NCBI GenBank assembly: GCA_003514055.1
Contig: DOSG01000008.1
Span: forward strand, 45,895 to 109,894
Length of the DNA: 64,000 nucleotides
DNA from: Candidatus Yanofskybacteria bacterium
GTDB taxonomy: Bacteria; Patescibacteriota; Minisyncoccia; 2-02-FULL-40-12; GWA2-44-9
Reading direction: 5' to 3'
The notes beneath the pieces were generated by a model that saw only the letters and a list, made by a program, of their open reading frames with translations, was not told the origin of the DNA and ran no database searches. How positions within the stretch are numbered: the stretch's first letter is position 1; the number at the start of each line of letters is the position of its first letter. The translations under genes and the position numbers were made by a program. Below are positions 8,667 through 64,000 of the stretch, one piece after another.

Positions 8667-9608
8667 TTAATTTCCTATTTTGCCCATTTTATCTTTATAA
8701 AAATCGAATACTCCGTTTAGTATTGCCTGCGACCTTTCTTTTTCGATACCAAATATCAATTTGATTATCTGCTTTTTAATAATCCAGATGCTCCAGGGCC
8801 ACAATAATATTTGCACCCACCACGGACCAAATTTACGATTGAAATAAAGAGCGTTACGGTAATGATATCTCAACAGTAACGGAGACCCTAATTTTTTGGT
8901 TGAGGCCGATACCTTATGATTAATAGATACTCCTTCGGCTATGCCGATTGAAAACCCGGCTTGAGCCGCAGTCAATGATAAGTCGGCATCTTCAAAGTAC
9001 AGAAAATAGTCCTCATCCATTAGGCCAATCTTTTCAAACACATCACTAGATATGGCCGCGCCACCACCGATGGCGTAGATATTAGAAACACAATGGCCGC
9101 GTTGAATACAATGGCTGTCTTTTAGGCCGCAAAGACAGCCATTGTATTCAGGCGTATATATGTGTCCGAGGGTAGGCTTTAGCCACTTCACCAAGCCAGC
9201 ATAGGCCGTATGCCCACCCTCATCCAAAGGTATTGAAACTACCCCCCTTTTGAGCCTCAAAACGGCCTTTAGGCGAGCGATAAAGTCCTTTTCAGGTGTT
9301 GTATCGTTATTGATCAAAATCACCCATTTTGACCCTCCGGCCAAGGCCTTTTTTATGCCCACATTACACCCCCCAGAAAAGCCGAGGTTTTGACCATTTT
9401 TAATAACCACCAGGTTCTGCCAACCATGCTTTTTTTGATACTCATTGAGCCTATCTATGTCGGCCACGTTAGAACCATTCTCAACTACAATCAATTCGAA
9501 ATCAGAATCGGTTTGATTCTTAAATATATTTAGAAGATTAATCGTGTCTTCTGCTCCGTTATAATTTACAGTTACTATTGATATCTTCATCTTATCCATT
9601 AATACCAT
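8667..9608 (-). CDS. glycosyltransferase family 2
   Basis: KISIVTVNYNGAEDT...ELIVVENGS GT-A signature. Confidence 0.85.
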   Translation of the reverse strand: MVLMDKMKISIVTVNYNGAEDTINLLNIFKNQTDSDFELIVVENGSNVADIDRLNEYQKKHGWQNLVVIKNGQNLGFSGGCNVGIKKALAGGSKWVILINNDTTPEKDFIARLKAVLRLKRGVVSIPLDEGGHTAYAGLVKWLKPTLGHIYTPEYNGCLCGLKDSHCIQRGHCVSNIYAIGGGAAISSDVFEKIGLMDEDYFLYFEDADLSLTAAQAGFSIGIAEGVSINHKVSASTKKLGSPLLLRYHYRNALYFNRKFGPWWVQILLWPWSIWIIKKQIIKLIFGIEKERSQAILNGVFDFYKDKMGKIGN

Positions 9609-9647: not shown

Positions 9648-9968
9648 TTATGCCCGAGAAGTTTCTGCGATATAGCTCTGCTCGAAAGCAAACCACATCT
9701 CTCTCCACTCTCCGTTAAGACGGATCCTAGAAAATACGAGCATATCGGGCGGATCACCACGCCCCTGACAATTAAAATCAGACTTACTGTAAATTTTCTC
9801 ATGTTCCATTTTATAAACAGTACAACCGATTTCATTGCCGTAAAATTGATACCCAAGTTGCTCTGGGTTCTTAGCAATCTGAACGGCCGATATTAGGTCT
9901 TCAGTCATGAGAACTGGATCAGATACTTCTCCATGGCCAGTATCGTGCGTTGCGATGACAATGAACAT
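9648..9968 (-). CDS. hypothetical protein (106 aa)
   Basis: Strong SD (GGGGAGG) 5 nt upstream of the ATG at 9968; no family recognised. Confidence 0.55.
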   Translation of the reverse strand: MFIVIATHDTGHGEVSDPVLMTEDLISAVQIAKNPEQLGYQFYGNEIGCTVYKMEHEKIYSKSDFNCQGRGDPPDMLVFSRIRLNGEWREMWFAFEQSYIAETSRA

Positions 9969-10054
9969 GTAAGCCTCCCCTGCTTAGAAACTGAGCCGAT
10001 AATCTCACAAATCCCGGCATGCGTCAATTAACTCAAGGTGTTTAAAAATAGCGG

Positions 10055-10098
10055 GAGGAACTTTCGAGAGGCTCTCGCAGGAACGAAAGTTTTCCCCC
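10055..10098. repeat. hairpin sharing the GAGAGGCTCTCG core with the 17446 element (partial copy / terminator of the GT4 gene)
   Basis: AACTTTCG-AGAGGCTCTCGCAGGAA-CGAAAGTT followed by TTTCCCCC. Confidence 0.4.
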
Positions 10099-10102
10099 TA
10101 TT

Positions 10103-11167
10103 TTACTCGATTATCTCCAATATAGCATTTCTAAAATTTTCGAGAGAGAATCTCTTGGCTGATTCTTTGATAAGATTTGGGCTATATTTGTGATAATTAT
10201 CATTGAGCCTTCTAATGCCATCTGCCAAAGCTTCTGGTATCGGATCGTCAAAAAATTCTCCAGTAACCCCCTCTTCGATGATCTCCATGGCACCGCCCCT
10301 ACGTAGTGCCACTACTGGCTTGCCATAAGCCATAGCCTCAACCGGAGCAATCCCGAAATCTTCTTCTTGCGGCATAATGAATGCCCGACAATTCTTGTAA
10401 TAGCCAGCCAAAAACTCATCAGAAACGAATCCCAGCAAATCAACATTATCGCCAGCCATCCTTTTTAATCTCCTCTTGGTCGGCCCATCGCCGATTATGA
10501 TCAAGGGTAATTTTAGCTTATTAAAAGTATCAATAACCAAGGCAATATTTTTATAGTCATAAAGCCTCGAAACAATCAGATAATAATTCTCAATAGTCGG
10601 CACAAAATCTGATTCTATGTTGTAGGTATTCACTGGTGGGAATATAATCTTTGAATCTCTGTGGTAGTATTTTTTTATCCTATCTTGAACATTCTTCGAT
10701 ATGGCGATAAATTCATCGACTCTATCCGAGGCCAAGCGATCCCATATTCTTAAATAGTGTCTGGCGACTTTGCTAATTAATCCCGATCTTTCGTAGTCTG
10801 AATTTCTATCCCATAAAAATCTTGTTGGGCTATAGCAATAACAAATATGCCTAGTTTTTGGTTTTAGAACTAATCCCTTTGAGAAAATTACAGATGATGA
10901 GATTACTAGGTCAAATTCAGACAAATCAAATGACTCGATAATGCTAGGCATTATAAATGCTAAATATGGGTAAGCGGTCATCACGAAGGGAAGTCTCTGC
11001 AATCTGCTAGCTACAATTTTAGTATTAGGCAAATATCTACTAGTCAGCTTTTTCTTGTGAAATAAGGTATAAATCGGCGCATTGGGAAATATTTCATGCA
11101 AAGCAATAAGGGTGCGTTCGGCACCCCCCAAATTTAGAACCCAATCATGTACCAGCGCTATTTTCAT
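10103..11167 (-). CDS. glycosyltransferase family 1 (GT4)
   Basis: MKIALVHDW...GGAERT N-terminus and GIAPVEAMAYGKPVV C-terminal motif. Confidence 0.85.
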   Translation of the reverse strand: MKIALVHDWVLNLGGAERTLIALHEIFPNAPIYTLFHKKKLTSRYLPNTKIVASRLQRLPFVMTAYPYLAFIMPSIIESFDLSEFDLVISSSVIFSKGLVLKPKTRHICYCYSPTRFLWDRNSDYERSGLISKVARHYLRIWDRLASDRVDEFIAISKNVQDRIKKYYHRDSKIIFPPVNTYNIESDFVPTIENYYLIVSRLYDYKNIALVIDTFNKLKLPLIIIGDGPTKRRLKRMAGDNVDLLGFVSDEFLAGYYKNCRAFIMPQEEDFGIAPVEAMAYGKPVVALRRGGAMEIIEEGVTGEFFDDPIPEALADGIRRLNDNYHKYSPNLIKESAKRFSLENFRNAILEIIE

Positions 11168-16960: not shown

Positions 16961-17398
16961 CTAGACTCTCCTCGGTTTCTTACTCCTAACGCCATTATGC
17001 GCAACCGGGGTATTGTCCTGGATCGATAAAACATTCAAACCCGTTCCAGCTATGCCTCTGATCGCCGATTCTCGGCCGGGTCCAATTCCCTTAGCGATAA
17101 TCTTGATATTGGTCAGATTAAACTTTTTAGCTTTCTCTACACAATCCTTAGCAACCATATTTGCGGCATAAGGAGTAGACTTCTTGGTACCCTTAAAACC
17201 CAAGCCACCAGCCGATGACCAAGCAATAATATCGCCTTTCTGATCGCTGATAGCAATAGAAGTATTATTATACGAAACGTTAATGTGGGCTATACCATTT
17301 ATAACTTGTTTCTTACTACTTTTCTTAGGAGCTGCGGGAGCGTTGCTTTCTGTTGCTCCAGAAGTCTCGGTTTTTGTGATGATTTTCTTTTTTCCCAT
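16961..17398 (-). CDS. rpsK: 30S ribosomal protein S11
   Basis: GIAHINVSYNNT...KGIGPGRESAIR. Confidence 0.95.
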   Translation of the reverse strand: MGKKKIITKTETSGATESNAPAAPKKSSKKQVINGIAHINVSYNNTSIAISDQKGDIIAWSSAGGLGFKGTKKSTPYAANMVAKDCVEKAKKFNLTNIKIIAKGIGPGRESAIRGIAGTGLNVLSIQDNTPVAHNGVRSKKPRRV

Positions 17399-17445
17399 TT
17401 TATTTAAATTCTCGAATCTACTAAGACGTTAGACTCAGACATAAG

Positions 17446-17526
17446 TTCTGAGAGGCTCTCGGAGCGCGACTGGCGCGAGAGAGAGGGTGATTTCTAGTAA
17501 GAAATAAACCCGTACTCGAAAAACTT
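17446..17526. repeat. conserved structured intergenic element (copy B) in the 152-nt rpsM-rpsK spacer
   Basis: GAGAGGCTCTCG / GCGC-GACTG-GCGC / GAGAGGGTGATTTCT-AGTA-AGAAATA / AACCCGTACTCGAAAAACTT; homologous to 63393-63477. Confidence 0.55.
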
Positions 17527-17550
17527 GTGTCTGGGCCTAACTAATATTCT

Positions 17551-17937
17551 TTATGTCTTCTCGGATGACGGTTTTCTGCCAGAGCCCATGGTTCTTCTTA
17601 CGTTGCCCCTGGTAGTTCTTGAATTTGTCTTAGAACGGCCATGCAGCGGCAACCTGTGCGCGTGTCTGAGTCCTCTCCAGGCCCCAATTTCCTTCAATCT
17701 TTTTATGTTTCCAGTGACTTCTTTTCTTAAGTCTCCTTCTACCTTATAGCTCAATTCAATTATCTTTTGGATTTTATTTAGTTCCTCAGTCGTTAAATCT
17801 TTGGCTAGCTTATTCTCATCGATACCTACGGTTCTTAAAATTATCCTGCTAGTGCTAAAACCTAAACCATAAACATACGGTAATGAGTAAACAATCTTCT
17901 TTTTATCAGGAATGACTATACCTAGAATTCTTGGCAT
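17551..17937 (-). CDS. rpsM: 30S ribosomal protein S13 (start at MPRILGI; the ORF-track start is 5 codons upstream)
   Basis: MPRILGIVIPDKKKIVYSLPYVYGLG...GLRH. Confidence 0.9.
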   Translation of the reverse strand: MPRILGIVIPDKKKIVYSLPYVYGLGFSTSRIILRTVGIDENKLAKDLTTEELNKIQKIIELSYKVEGDLRKEVTGNIKRLKEIGAWRGLRHAHRLPLHGRSKTNSRTTRGNVRRTMGSGRKPSSEKT

Positions 17938-18006
17938 TAAATGAATTATCAATTATCAGTTATCAATTTCCATTTTTATTGGTAATCGTTAACTGGTAAC
18001 TGTTTA

Positions 18007-33094: not shown

Positions 33095-33123
33095 AATCAA
33101 AAGCCGCCTGCAAGGCGGCTAGG
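33095..33123 (-). terminator. terminator hairpin, one of two exact 29-nt copies
   Basis: AATCAAAAGCCGCCTGCAAGGCGGCTAGG, identical to 33808-33836. Confidence 0.6.
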
Positions 33124-33807: not shown

Positions 33808-33836
33808 AATCAAAAGCCGCCTGCAAGGCGGCTAGG
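33808..33836 (-). terminator. terminator hairpin, second exact 29-nt copy
   Basis: AATCAAAAGCCGCCTGCAAGGCGGCTAGG. Confidence 0.6.
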
Positions 33837-60103: not shown

Positions 60104-60147
60104 GCTTGGGCCTTCGCTTCGATCAATTGGCTCGGCACAAACGAAGC
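60104..60147. repeat. direct repeat DR1 flanking the 29-aa-repeat gene
   Basis: GCTTGGGCCTTCGCTTCGATCAATTGGCTCGGCACAAACGAAGC; about 80% identical to 61108-61151. Confidence 0.55.
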
Positions 60148-60180: not shown

Positions 60181-61065
60181 TTACTGACTCCTCCTCAACA
60201 AGGCCTGCTGAGTCTTGGTCAGGTTCTTCACGTCGTAAAGAGCGTAATTTGAATATTCTGCATTCTTGGCTACTGCCTTAACCAGAACATCTTTCTGAAC
60301 TCTGGTTAGACCCTTCATGTCGCGAAGAGTACGATATGCATATCTTACTTCTTTGGTCACTACTTTAATTAAGACATCTTTCTGAATTCTGGTCAGGCCG
60401 CCTACCTCGTAAAGAACGTCATGCGCATGTTCTGGGTTTTTGGCCAAACCCCTGACTAGAATGCCTTTCTGAGTGTTGGTCAGGTTCTTCACGTCACGAA
60501 GAACGTCAGATGCATATTCTGCACTCTTGGCCACGCCCTCAATCAAGATATCTTTTTGAGTCTCGGGCAGATCGCCTACCTCGCAAAGGACAGAAGACGC
60601 ATCGGTCACGTCTTCAGCTACACGAGGAATACAGATATCCATGAAGGCCGATCTCCAGAGCTCGGGAGCTCTTATGAGAATGTAACTGGCATCGTCTGGC
60701 TGAAGAGATCGTTTGAGCATTTTGCTCCAAGTATCAAAAAGAGTTTCGGGGGATTCAAGATGAATGGCAATTTCAGGTGGGAATTGAGTTTTATCCCAAA
60801 AATCCCTGTTTTCGAATTGAGGCAAACTTTCTGTCACTGGGCCATAGAAAGCATCAATAGCACTGTGCCCCAATATGTCGTTATGCATCGTACCTCGTAG
60901 AGTCTCTCTCCCATGAGGAGAAAATACATCTTTGTCCGTCAGAAAGTAGATATTCCCTTTAATATCCTTCTTCCAAGAGATGAAGTCGCACATGACACGC
61001 TTCCTTTCAAGAGAACTGAGGTGAATATACCACGCCCAAGCGGCATATGTCAAGTAGAGCATCAT
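60181..61065 (-). CDS. protein with 4.5 tandem 29-aa repeats (DVLxDVKxLTxxQKDxLxxxxAKNxEYAx) after a roughly 150-aa N-terminal domain
   Basis: Repeats visible by eye in the ORF translation; no known family assigned. Confidence 0.5.
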   Translation of the reverse strand: MMLYLTYAAWAWYIHLSSLERKRVMCDFISWKKDIKGNIYFLTDKDVFSPHGRETLRGTMHNDILGHSAIDAFYGPVTESLPQFENRDFWDKTQFPPEIAIHLESPETLFDTWSKMLKRSLQPDDASYILIRAPELWRSAFMDICIPRVAEDVTDASSVLCEVGDLPETQKDILIEGVAKSAEYASDVLRDVKNLTNTQKGILVRGLAKNPEHAHDVLYEVGGLTRIQKDVLIKVVTKEVRYAYRTLRDMKGLTRVQKDVLVKAVAKNAEYSNYALYDVKNLTKTQQALLRRSQ

Positions 61066-61107: not shown

Positions 61108-61151
61108 GCTTGGGCCTTCGCTTCGATCAGTTAGCTCAATTCAAGCGAAGC
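61108..61151. repeat. direct repeat DR2
   Basis: GCTTGGGCCTTCGCTTCGATCAGTTAGCTCAATTCAAGCGAAGC. Confidence 0.55.
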
Positions 61152-63359: not shown

Positions 63360-63392
63360 AAATAATTATCGAGTTAAGGGCGCAGATGTTAA

Positions 63393-63477
63393 TTTTGAGA
63401 GACCCGCGCAGAGCCGACTGGGCTCGAGCGAGAGGGTGATTTCTCAGCAGAGAAATACAACCCGTGCTCGAAAAGTT
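63393..63477. repeat. conserved structured intergenic element (copy C) in the 145-nt spacer between the adaptor and ATPase genes
   Basis: GAGAGACCCGCGCA / GAGCC-GACTG-GGCTC / GAGCGAGAGGGTGATTTCTC-AGCA-GAGAAATA / CAACCCGTGCTCGAAAAGTT. Confidence 0.55.
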
Positions 63478-63504
63478 AATATCTGCGACCTCTCGACGCA
63501 CCTT

Positions 63505-64000
63505 CTATTGGATTAGAATTTTATCTCCGGCCACGAGGCCACTAACGATCTCCGTTTTTCCGTCTGACCCCTTCAGTCCTGTCGTAATTGGCATTTCATA
63601 TACAACAGCGACGTCATCTCTTGTAGCTACTGATAAATTAGCAAATCTTGTGTTGGAAGCATCGTCTTGATTAGCCACCACGATTTTTACATATTTCTGG
63701 CCATCTCTTTGATAAATAGCTCTGGTCGGAATTACTAGAACCCCGTCTCTCATATCATTGAGTATGTCCATATTAGCAGTTAAGCCCGAACGAATCCTCT
63801 CATCGCTTTCGACAAACTGCAACTTAGTCTCATATGTCGGAACTCCATCAATCATCTTTTCGGCTGGGTATATGCTTGTAACCTTAGCCTCCCAAGAAAA
63901 ATCTTGACCAAAAGCATCTAAGGTCACCTTGGCTGTATTACCTACATTAACCTTAGATATGTCAGCCTCTGGTATATTAGAGGTTATTTCATAATTTGAG
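63505..64000 (-). CDS. HlyD/MacA-family periplasmic adaptor, 5'-truncated by window end
   Basis: C-terminal beta-barrel/MP domain; frame stays open to the window edge. Confidence 0.8.
   Translation of the reverse strand, partial: SNYEITSNIPEADISKVNVGNTAKVTLDAFGQDFSWEAKVTSIYPAEKMIDGVPTYETKLQFVESDERIRSGLTANMDILNDMRDGVLVIPTRAIYQRDGQKYVKIVVANQDDASNTRFANLSVATRDDVAVVYEMPITTGLKGSDGKTEIVSGLVAGDKILIQ

Follow-up and report, generated by a model that had tools for sequence, protein, structure and literature searches.

Patescibacteria (CPR) have genomes of ∼1 Mb with spacers of a few bases, yet some of their contigs carry up to six elements of 120 nt per ∼12 kb, even in ribosomal protein operons. One of these elements lies in a Candidatus Yanofskybacteria bacterium, in a spacer of exactly 145 nt between the adaptor and ATPase genes of a MacB-type transporter operon, within a stretch of 64,000 nt that was analysed as a whole (the window). 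The question raised by this locus is whether the element belongs to the operon and acts on its expression, or is of another nature and merely resides there. The initial annotation, made from the letters alone, had claimed a structured element in the 145-nt spacer and a second copy of it in the window, both between co-directional minus-strand genes, and had proposed that they act as attenuators, processing sites or stabilisers giving differential expression of the upstream and downstream cistrons.

The structural part of this account is borne out. The + strand of the spacer folds at -60.8 kcal/mol (z -6.7) and the minus strand at -52.3 kcal/mol (z -4.3), and on either strand 0 of 200 dinucleotide shuffles fold as well. 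A sensitive blastn search of the spacer against the window returns the second copy (17436-17533, 76.7% identity over 103 nt, E 5e-14), whose covariance-model extent is given in Table 1; it lies between rpsM and rpsK, so that both copies are flanked by co-directional minus-strand genes. The two copies have the same orientation, and the same fold is kept in them through compensatory changes. A covariance model built from the two scores 135 and 130 bits for its source copies and at most 25 bits in the rest of the window, with no further full copy in the 64 kb. The element had been drawn too short, however: the segment 63393-63477, named copy C, is real but represents the inner 85 nt (the junction core and the top of the stem) of a unit whose 3' end is abutted by the adaptor stop codon. 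The family profile additionally detects an internally deleted third copy, located between the minus-strand ORFs 9648..9968 and 10103..11167, in which the arms GGGAGGAACTTTC and GAAAGTTTTCCCCC enclose just the start of the core. In all three window copies the folding strand is antisense to the genes.

Table 1. Coordinates of the transporter operon, of the element and its parts, and of the related copies, in positions of the 64,000-nt window.
Feature	Position	Strand	Basis or remarks
Intercistronic spacer	63360..63504		adaptor TAG 63505-63507 to ATPase ATG 63359-63357, both minus strand
HlyD/MacA-like adaptor, 3' part	63505..>64000	-	Pfam HlyD_3/HlyD_D23; gene cut by window edge
MacB-type system ABC transporter ATPase, 239 aa	62640..63359	-	Pfam ABC_tran
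MacB_PCD/FtsX permease, 413 aa	61393..62634	-	Pfam MacB_PCD+FtsX
Full element, folding (model) strand	63369..63496 (about)	+	fold -60.8 kcal/mol; model R1 134.9 bits; family profile E 9e-11
P1 5' arm (CGCAGAUGUUAAUUUU)	63381..63396	+	sequence varies among copies; G.U pairs possible solely on + strand
P1 3' arm (AAAGUUAAUAUCUGCG)	63472..63487	+	fold, covariation
Tandem G.A loop (GA 63397-63398), then P2 5' strand (GAG 63399-63401)	63397..63401	+	partners CUC 63467-63469 and GA 63470-63471
Hairpin P3	63403..63432	+	covariation; invariant columns
Junction A between P3 and P4	63433	+	A61, invariant in 117 copies
Hairpin P4 (GGGU.../...ACCC), loop AGCA 63446-63449 (family AGNA)	63434..63463	+	covariation
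Junction GUG (family GUR), then P2 3' strand CUC	63464..63469	+	third junction base covaries with purine 63402
Sister copy	17426..17545 (covariance-model extent)	+	family profile E 3e-21; antisense to rpsM and rpsK
rpsM (S13)	17551..17952	-	flanks sister copy
rpsK (S11)	16961..17398	-	flanks sister copy
Internally deleted remnant, third copy	10042..10100	+	family profile; stem arms and first 19 nt of core (GAGAGGCUCUCGCAGGAAC) retained

The unit of ∼120 nt is a conserved three-way junction on top of a long, variable and nearly perfect stem (P0/P1/P2, ∼20-25 bp) that is often interrupted by G.A-rich internal loops. On the folding strand, P0/P1 (an outer stem in which a GARG/CGRA purine loop is common) is followed by a step that is either a tandem G.A or fully paired, then by P2, the junction purine, P3, A, P4, GUR and the 3' strand of P2. 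In the family, P3 begins with a 5-bp helix in which a U mismatch recurs and continues through a GNA/GA internal loop and a helix of 4-5 bp to a GAC(U)G loop; in the window copy it has a 5-bp lower helix, an internal loop of GCA (63408-63410) and GA (63426-63427), an upper helix and the GAC(U)G loop at 63416-63420. The conserved part is the branched apex of ∼75 nt, and the stem arms vary freely.

This architecture is supported by covariation. In an alignment of 117 distinct copies, 90.7% of cells pair, compared with 64.3% in column shuffles (the observed value is reached by 0 of 500), and 35 of the 39 pairs show changes on both sides; a set of 22 copies was analysed likewise. When the partners are slid by 1-3 columns, pairing falls to 39-51%. 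The covariation score is 0.686, compared with 0.200 in shuffles and 0.08-0.14 in the slid versions. A structure-blind scan of mutual information recovers the helices de novo together with the junction purine pair, in which the purine 63402 and the third junction base exchange G.A for A.G (columns 34 and 98 of alignment A8). A loop-loop pseudoknot was considered and rejected, with no covariation outside the helices except at this purine pair. The window element is confirmed as a conserved structured nucleic acid, with compensatory changes above both the shuffled and the slid controls. A chance hairpin or an assembly artefact, for which only the metagenomic origin of the assemblies could be cited, is refuted by the family evidence and has next to no probability, given the z values of -4.3 to -6.7, the strong covariation and the recovery of the element in independent assemblies from NCBI, JGI, ENA and Logan.

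Optional hairpins occur at fixed sites of the element. In upper P3 the 3' strand can hold a near-identical insert of ∼49 nt, and an additional GC-rich hairpin can be present at P4. The former (TCTAAGCGAAGTTTCTTAGTCGGTGCTTTAGCCCGACTAGAATCGCTTT) is present at L008:9745-9797 and also in L163, L140, L255, L210, L190 and L185, in elements of different subfamilies, and represents an optional domain of the repeat or, alternatively, a smaller element that parasitises it. The latter (CCTGCCTGCCGGCAGGCAGG or similar) is found at or in P4 of L012:10718-10858, L184:2114-2254, L204:2757-2892 and L255:1829-2002.

Model R1 and the family profile together identify at least 277 copies (at least 188 of them unique) in 144 loci from Patescibacteria genomes and groundwater metagenomes, with 190 matches to model R1 in the 714 kb of collected loci. 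A specific DNA pattern finds at least 119 loci in JGI metagenomes, mostly from groundwater. With a degenerate pattern and a stem-complementarity filter, true copies in species-representative genomes were recognised at 16 loci among the matches listed, the rest being mostly GC-rich noise. The strict first pattern, which fits both window copies, is too specific to the window's subfamily and gave 0 matches in viral and genome collections. Among the matches listed, the taxon labels are Yanofskybacteria, Magasanikbacteria, Harrisonbacteria, Paceibacterota, Saccharibacteria (MAGs) and unclassified 'bacterium' or 'uncultured bacterium', and searches of viral contigs and of phage and plasmid records found no copies. 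As far as seen, the family is specific to Patescibacteria. Neither window copy matches any Rfam 15 family at E≤10, in a search that covers the hammerhead, twister, twister-sister, pistol, hatchet and HDV-like ribozymes, riboswitches, SRP and 6S; for eight other loci the sole Rfam 15 match is a chance plant miRNA hairpin (25.7 bits, threshold 100). Full-text literature searches found no description of the element. As far as seen, it is previously undescribed among bacterial intergenic palindromic repeats in its combination of conserved apex and variable arms, one-strand selection, a head-to-head rule for neighbouring copies (see below) and restriction to CPR.

The position of the copies relative to genes follows clear preferences. 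Classified by their flanks, single copies are antisense to co-directional genes in 43 cases, sense to co-directional genes in 19, between convergent genes in 26 and between divergent genes in 4, and 88 of these 92 have a gene end on one side at least. Stop codons are directed towards the 3' end of the folding strand in 110 instances (median gap 2 nt) and towards its 5' end in 44 (median gap 15 nt). The copies come to lie in the short gaps that separate genes, mostly directly behind a stop codon. Such placement is among the evidence for a cis-acting mRNA element (attenuator, processing site or stabiliser) that would set the adaptor:ATPase and S13:S11 ratios: the window copies lie between co-directional cistrons, directly past the upstream stop codon, and the family avoids divergent promoter regions. 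The same idea is favoured by the stable folding of the minus-strand RNA of both copies (-52.3 kcal/mol in the transporter operon and -47.4 kcal/mol in the rpsM-rpsK copy) and by the A/T runs that flank the stem in a few copies, as in bidirectional terminators (L082, L180). Neither window copy, however, has a terminator-like U tract or site, and an intrinsic terminator or attenuator was rejected for both. In the family as a whole, T-rich tracts (at least 5 T in the 8 nt past the stem) are found beside 21 and 22 of 153 copies on the two sides (∼14%), with no excess on either. The element also occurs in unrelated operons, where other copies adjoin DnaK, GroEL, UvrB, primase and other genes.

The strand on which the fold is maintained also speaks against such a regulator. 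Of 156 unique copies, 148 fold more stably on the model strand than on its complement, with a mean difference of 8 kcal/mol, and the paired columns contain 200 G.U but 56 A.C combinations. An A.C here is a G.U on the other strand, and the excess of G.U therefore indicates that folding is selected on one strand. In the window this selected, better-folding strand is the + strand, antisense to both operon mRNAs, and across the family it is antisense to the mRNA at ∼70% of co-directional sites. The G.U:A.C ratio is the same in sense (32:11), antisense (86:30) and convergent or divergent (74:34) contexts; since the bias is independent of the direction of neighbouring genes, it is not the host mRNA for which the fold is kept. 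The bias is also unlikely to stem from mutation pressure, since cytosine deamination on an exposed strand would be expected to bias the pairs in the opposite direction. The folding strand in the window is the C-rich strand, and GC skew is negative over all 64 kb. Replication strand and gene strand can be separated in only 8 informative copies, which split 5:3.

Comparison with relatives shows that both window sites are variable. The genome with 99% identical S11, Candidatus Yanofskybacteria RIFOXYD1_FULL_44_17 (GCA_001794775.1), has the same element on its contig, and a 97% relative also has it, on a contig that ends at the element. In relatives with S11 identities of 87% and 77% the rpsM-rpsK spacer is 2 and 9 nt long, and the sites of L003, L004 and L005-7 are empty. 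In the transporter operon, L016 (ATPase 85% identical) has no element, with spacers of 14 nt between adaptor and ATPase and 2 nt between ATPase and permease. The adaptor-ATPase spacer of L008-11 is 301 nt long and holds two copies, and L012-15 have two copies in this spacer and a third between ATPase and permease; all of these belong to subfamilies other than that of the window copy. Upstream of the adaptor, L008-L016 encode T4SS-like genes (DUF87/TrwB-like ATPase, T4SS_pilin), a synteny conserved in several Yanofskybacteria contigs.

Because the spacers of relatives are empty or differently filled, both window sites are insertion-polymorphic and repeatedly hit, and are not inherited regulatory structures, although part of the presence/absence pattern could reflect loss, since remnants exist. 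Near-identical cores are found in many unrelated contexts. The comparisons show that close relatives differ by copies gained or lost, by swaps and by erosion. Examples (L154:3023-3141 compared with L186/L164, and L145:846-1206 compared with L144:7919-8190) include erosion by deletion between short direct repeats (TGATT) and half-elements that start at the junction CGTAC and adjoin intact copies; at orthologous sites the resident element is replaceable by one of another subfamily (L143 compared with L163/L197).

Of the function first proposed for the two copies, what stands is a repeated structured intercistronic element; its role as an operon device does not, given the empty or differently filled spacers of close relatives, the selection of the antisense strand irrespective of orientation and the missing U tract, and we regard a dedicated regulator of these operons as improbable. 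In the reading that we prefer, with a probability of roughly 0.6, the spacer holds one copy of a non-autonomous, structure-defined and probably mobile repeat of the REP/ERIC type. On this best reading the element was not built to regulate macAB or the ribosomal protein operon, and its effects on their mRNAs are incidental at most.

The arrangement of neighbouring copies brings in a different alternative. All 28 adjacent unique pairs (gap ≤200 nt) are head-to-head, and orientations are random at larger distances. An origin of the pairs by inverted duplication was rejected, the partners being 58% identical compared with 64% for random pairs. The absence of tandem pairs could result from deletion between direct repeats, and deletions at short repeats are seen. 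The gaps within pairs are AT-rich, and in many of them a TATAAT-like box is found 6-8 nt away from the base of the stem. These features would suit small structured RNA genes or ribozymes, in which the + strand is transcribed alone, the three-way junction is active (binding a protein, cleaving itself, or serving as antisense or decoy RNA) and the members of a head-to-head pair share a short AT-rich bidirectional start region. Selection on one strand independently of host gene direction points the same way, as do the optional hairpins at fixed permissive sites and features typical of folded RNA, namely the purine-rich conserved loops, the tandem G.A and the covarying G.A/A.G junction pair.

An RNA gene would be expected to carry transcription signals, and these are not evident. 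TATAAT-like boxes are no commoner in the 5' than in the 3' flank (34 and 26, and 19 and 20, in the relevant windows), and a promoter of the element's own was rejected; the variant with outward promoters fares weakly (28 matches compared with 15 in one bin). No terminator signal is found on either side of the copies, nor any match to a known ribozyme or RNA family in the searches above, and communities contain copies by the hundred, diverged, eroding or truncated, which repeats explain better than genes do. Small RNA genes or ribozymes are the main rival to the mobile repeat, and we consider them unlikely, if less so than a regulator of the operon. The spacer itself contains a single sigma70-like site on the minus strand (TTAACA-16 nt-GATAAT at 63392..63365, in the arm and 5' tail of the element), which ends 6 nt ahead of the ATPase ATG and would yield a leaderless transcript; its occurrence is not above shuffle expectation.

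In the mobile-repeat reading, the fold would serve the propagation or maintenance of the element itself instead of control of macAB or the ribosomal protein operon. A factor encoded elsewhere would recognise the junction core of one strand, present either as single-stranded DNA or in the form of an RNA copy, and would copy or insert the element, in a manner resembling the use of REP/REPIN hairpins by RAYT transposases. The macAB and rpsM-rpsK copies would then have inserted, and been tolerated, where these operons offer their only free bases. Transcripts of the transporter operon would contain the reverse complement of the fold as a hairpin (-52 kcal/mol, no U tract), for which three side effects may be envisaged: a block to 3' exonucleases that protects the adaptor cistron, a double-stranded target for an RNase III-type enzyme, and an ATPase start that is no longer tightly coupled to the preceding stop.

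Among the ORFs beside or between copies, only housekeeping genes are found, with no mobilising enzyme, linked transposase or RAYT (Y1) transposase, and clustering of neighbour genes returns housekeeping orthologues only. A composite transposon was rejected, as the genes between more distant (-,+) copies encode DnaK, TrpRS, ProRS, UvrC, SOD and similar proteins. Flanks compared by subfamily contain no conserved junction or target motif, and comparison of these flanks and of filled with empty sites gives no consistent target-site duplication; a possible one at rpsM-rpsK, ATAAA, is low-complexity sequence.

Several known families of bacterial repeats share part of this profile. In REP, BIME and REPIN elements (associated with RAYT, IS200/IS605-like Y1 transposases, whose gene is typically flanked by the repeats), as in the CPR element, the units are extragenic, non-autonomous and hairpin-forming, lie at gene 3' ends, are rare between divergent genes, are inverted when adjoining, and show no obvious target duplication. 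A REPIN is described as a set of two inverted REPs that a single-copy RAYT uses (PMC3116915, PMC3337134). The CPR element differs in that its conservation lies in the three-way junction apex of ∼75 nt, whereas the recognised sequence of REP/REPIN is in the arms, in the stem and its 5' tetranucleotide; its unit is ∼120 nt compared with ∼35 nt (about 20-40 nt); the two members of a pair come from unrelated subfamilies and form no base pairs between them; and no RAYT-like gene was seen nearby. In the literature searched, nothing was found that joins REPIN or RAYT with a substantive treatment of Patescibacteria repeats.

ERIC (IRU) and Correia (CREE) elements of Proteobacteria are imperfect palindromes of 100-150 nt that have inserted into transcribed intergenic regions in both orientations and differ in presence from strain to strain. 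REP, ERIC and Correia elements can stabilise, process or attenuate transcripts. ERIC and Correia have no sequence similarity to the CPR element and are simple long hairpins, without a conserved branched core, a reported one-strand G.U bias or a strict head-to-head rule, and Correia elements have terminal inverted repeats and a TA duplication. Classical MITEs resemble the CPR element in being small, multi-copy and non-coding, with inverted-repeat ends and insertion polymorphism; the ends of the CPR element, however, are not conserved (the arms differ among subfamilies and covary), and no target duplication or parent insertion sequence was found for it.

The attC sites of integrons are likewise defined more by structure than by sequence. 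Their active form is one folded single strand, antisense to the ORF upstream, and the site adjoins or overlaps the stop codon of that ORF, a geometry also seen for the CPR element. In contrast to it, attC sites form same-orientation arrays beside an integrase gene (intI) and have R/L boxes (RYYYAAC...GTTRRRY) and extrahelical bases, whereas CPR elements are dispersed in core and housekeeping operons, and adjacent copies are head-to-head only. Boxes resembling attC R boxes (GTTAGAC...GCCTAAC) are confined to the rpsM-rpsK copy, where their order is wrong, and were judged a chance occurrence.

Besides the lack of a mobilising enzyme among the neighbouring genes and of a visible target-site duplication or target motif, other points count against the mobile repeat as the preferred explanation. 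It does not account for the strict head-to-head rule and the lack of tail-to-tail pairs. Conservation of the core across CPR classes, together with optional hairpins at fixed sites, is expected of a functional RNA and not of purely selfish DNA. In the window the folding strand is C-rich, whereas exposure as lagging-strand template would be expected of the other strand. We tentatively suggest, as an idea that is more likely wrong than right, that the three-way junction is the working part of an undescribed class of strand-specific mobile nucleic acids in CPR bacteria. These would be either a single-stranded DNA substrate of transposition, recognised by its shape and not by the sequence of its ends, or a possibly catalytic RNA from which new DNA copies are made, and the head-to-head rule would be a footprint of the insertion chemistry.

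The family provides a concrete handle on the persistence of repeats in streamlined genomes and may point to a new recombination or RNA activity. The element would serve as a strain-level marker, and it distorts CPR gene calls and spacer-based regulatory predictions. Beside the rpsM-rpsK copy, rpsK is annotated with 113 aa in GCA_001794775.1, 32 codons short of a 145-aa ORF that starts 27 nt from the element and fits the 144-148 aa of most relatives; judged from these lengths, the public annotation probably starts too late.

The window also contains other repeats. A 44-nt direct repeat (60104-60147 and 61108-61151, 84% identical) lies on either side of the minus-strand ORF 60181..61065, which has no Pfam match and consists in part of four 87-nt tandem units (60208-60559). 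Two identical 29-nt GC hairpins (AATCAAAAGCCGCCTGCAAGGCGGCTAGG) occur at 33095-33123 and 33808-33836, 713 nt apart. A perfect 22-bp palindrome with a 9-nt loop (9099-9156, GCGTTGAATACAATGGCTGTCTTT...AAGACAGCCATTGTATTCAGGCG), outside the element family, is located inside the 313-aa ORF 8667..9608 on the minus strand; the counterpart of this ORF on L001, a contig that is nearly identical, encodes 310 aa and has a Glycos_transf_2 domain.
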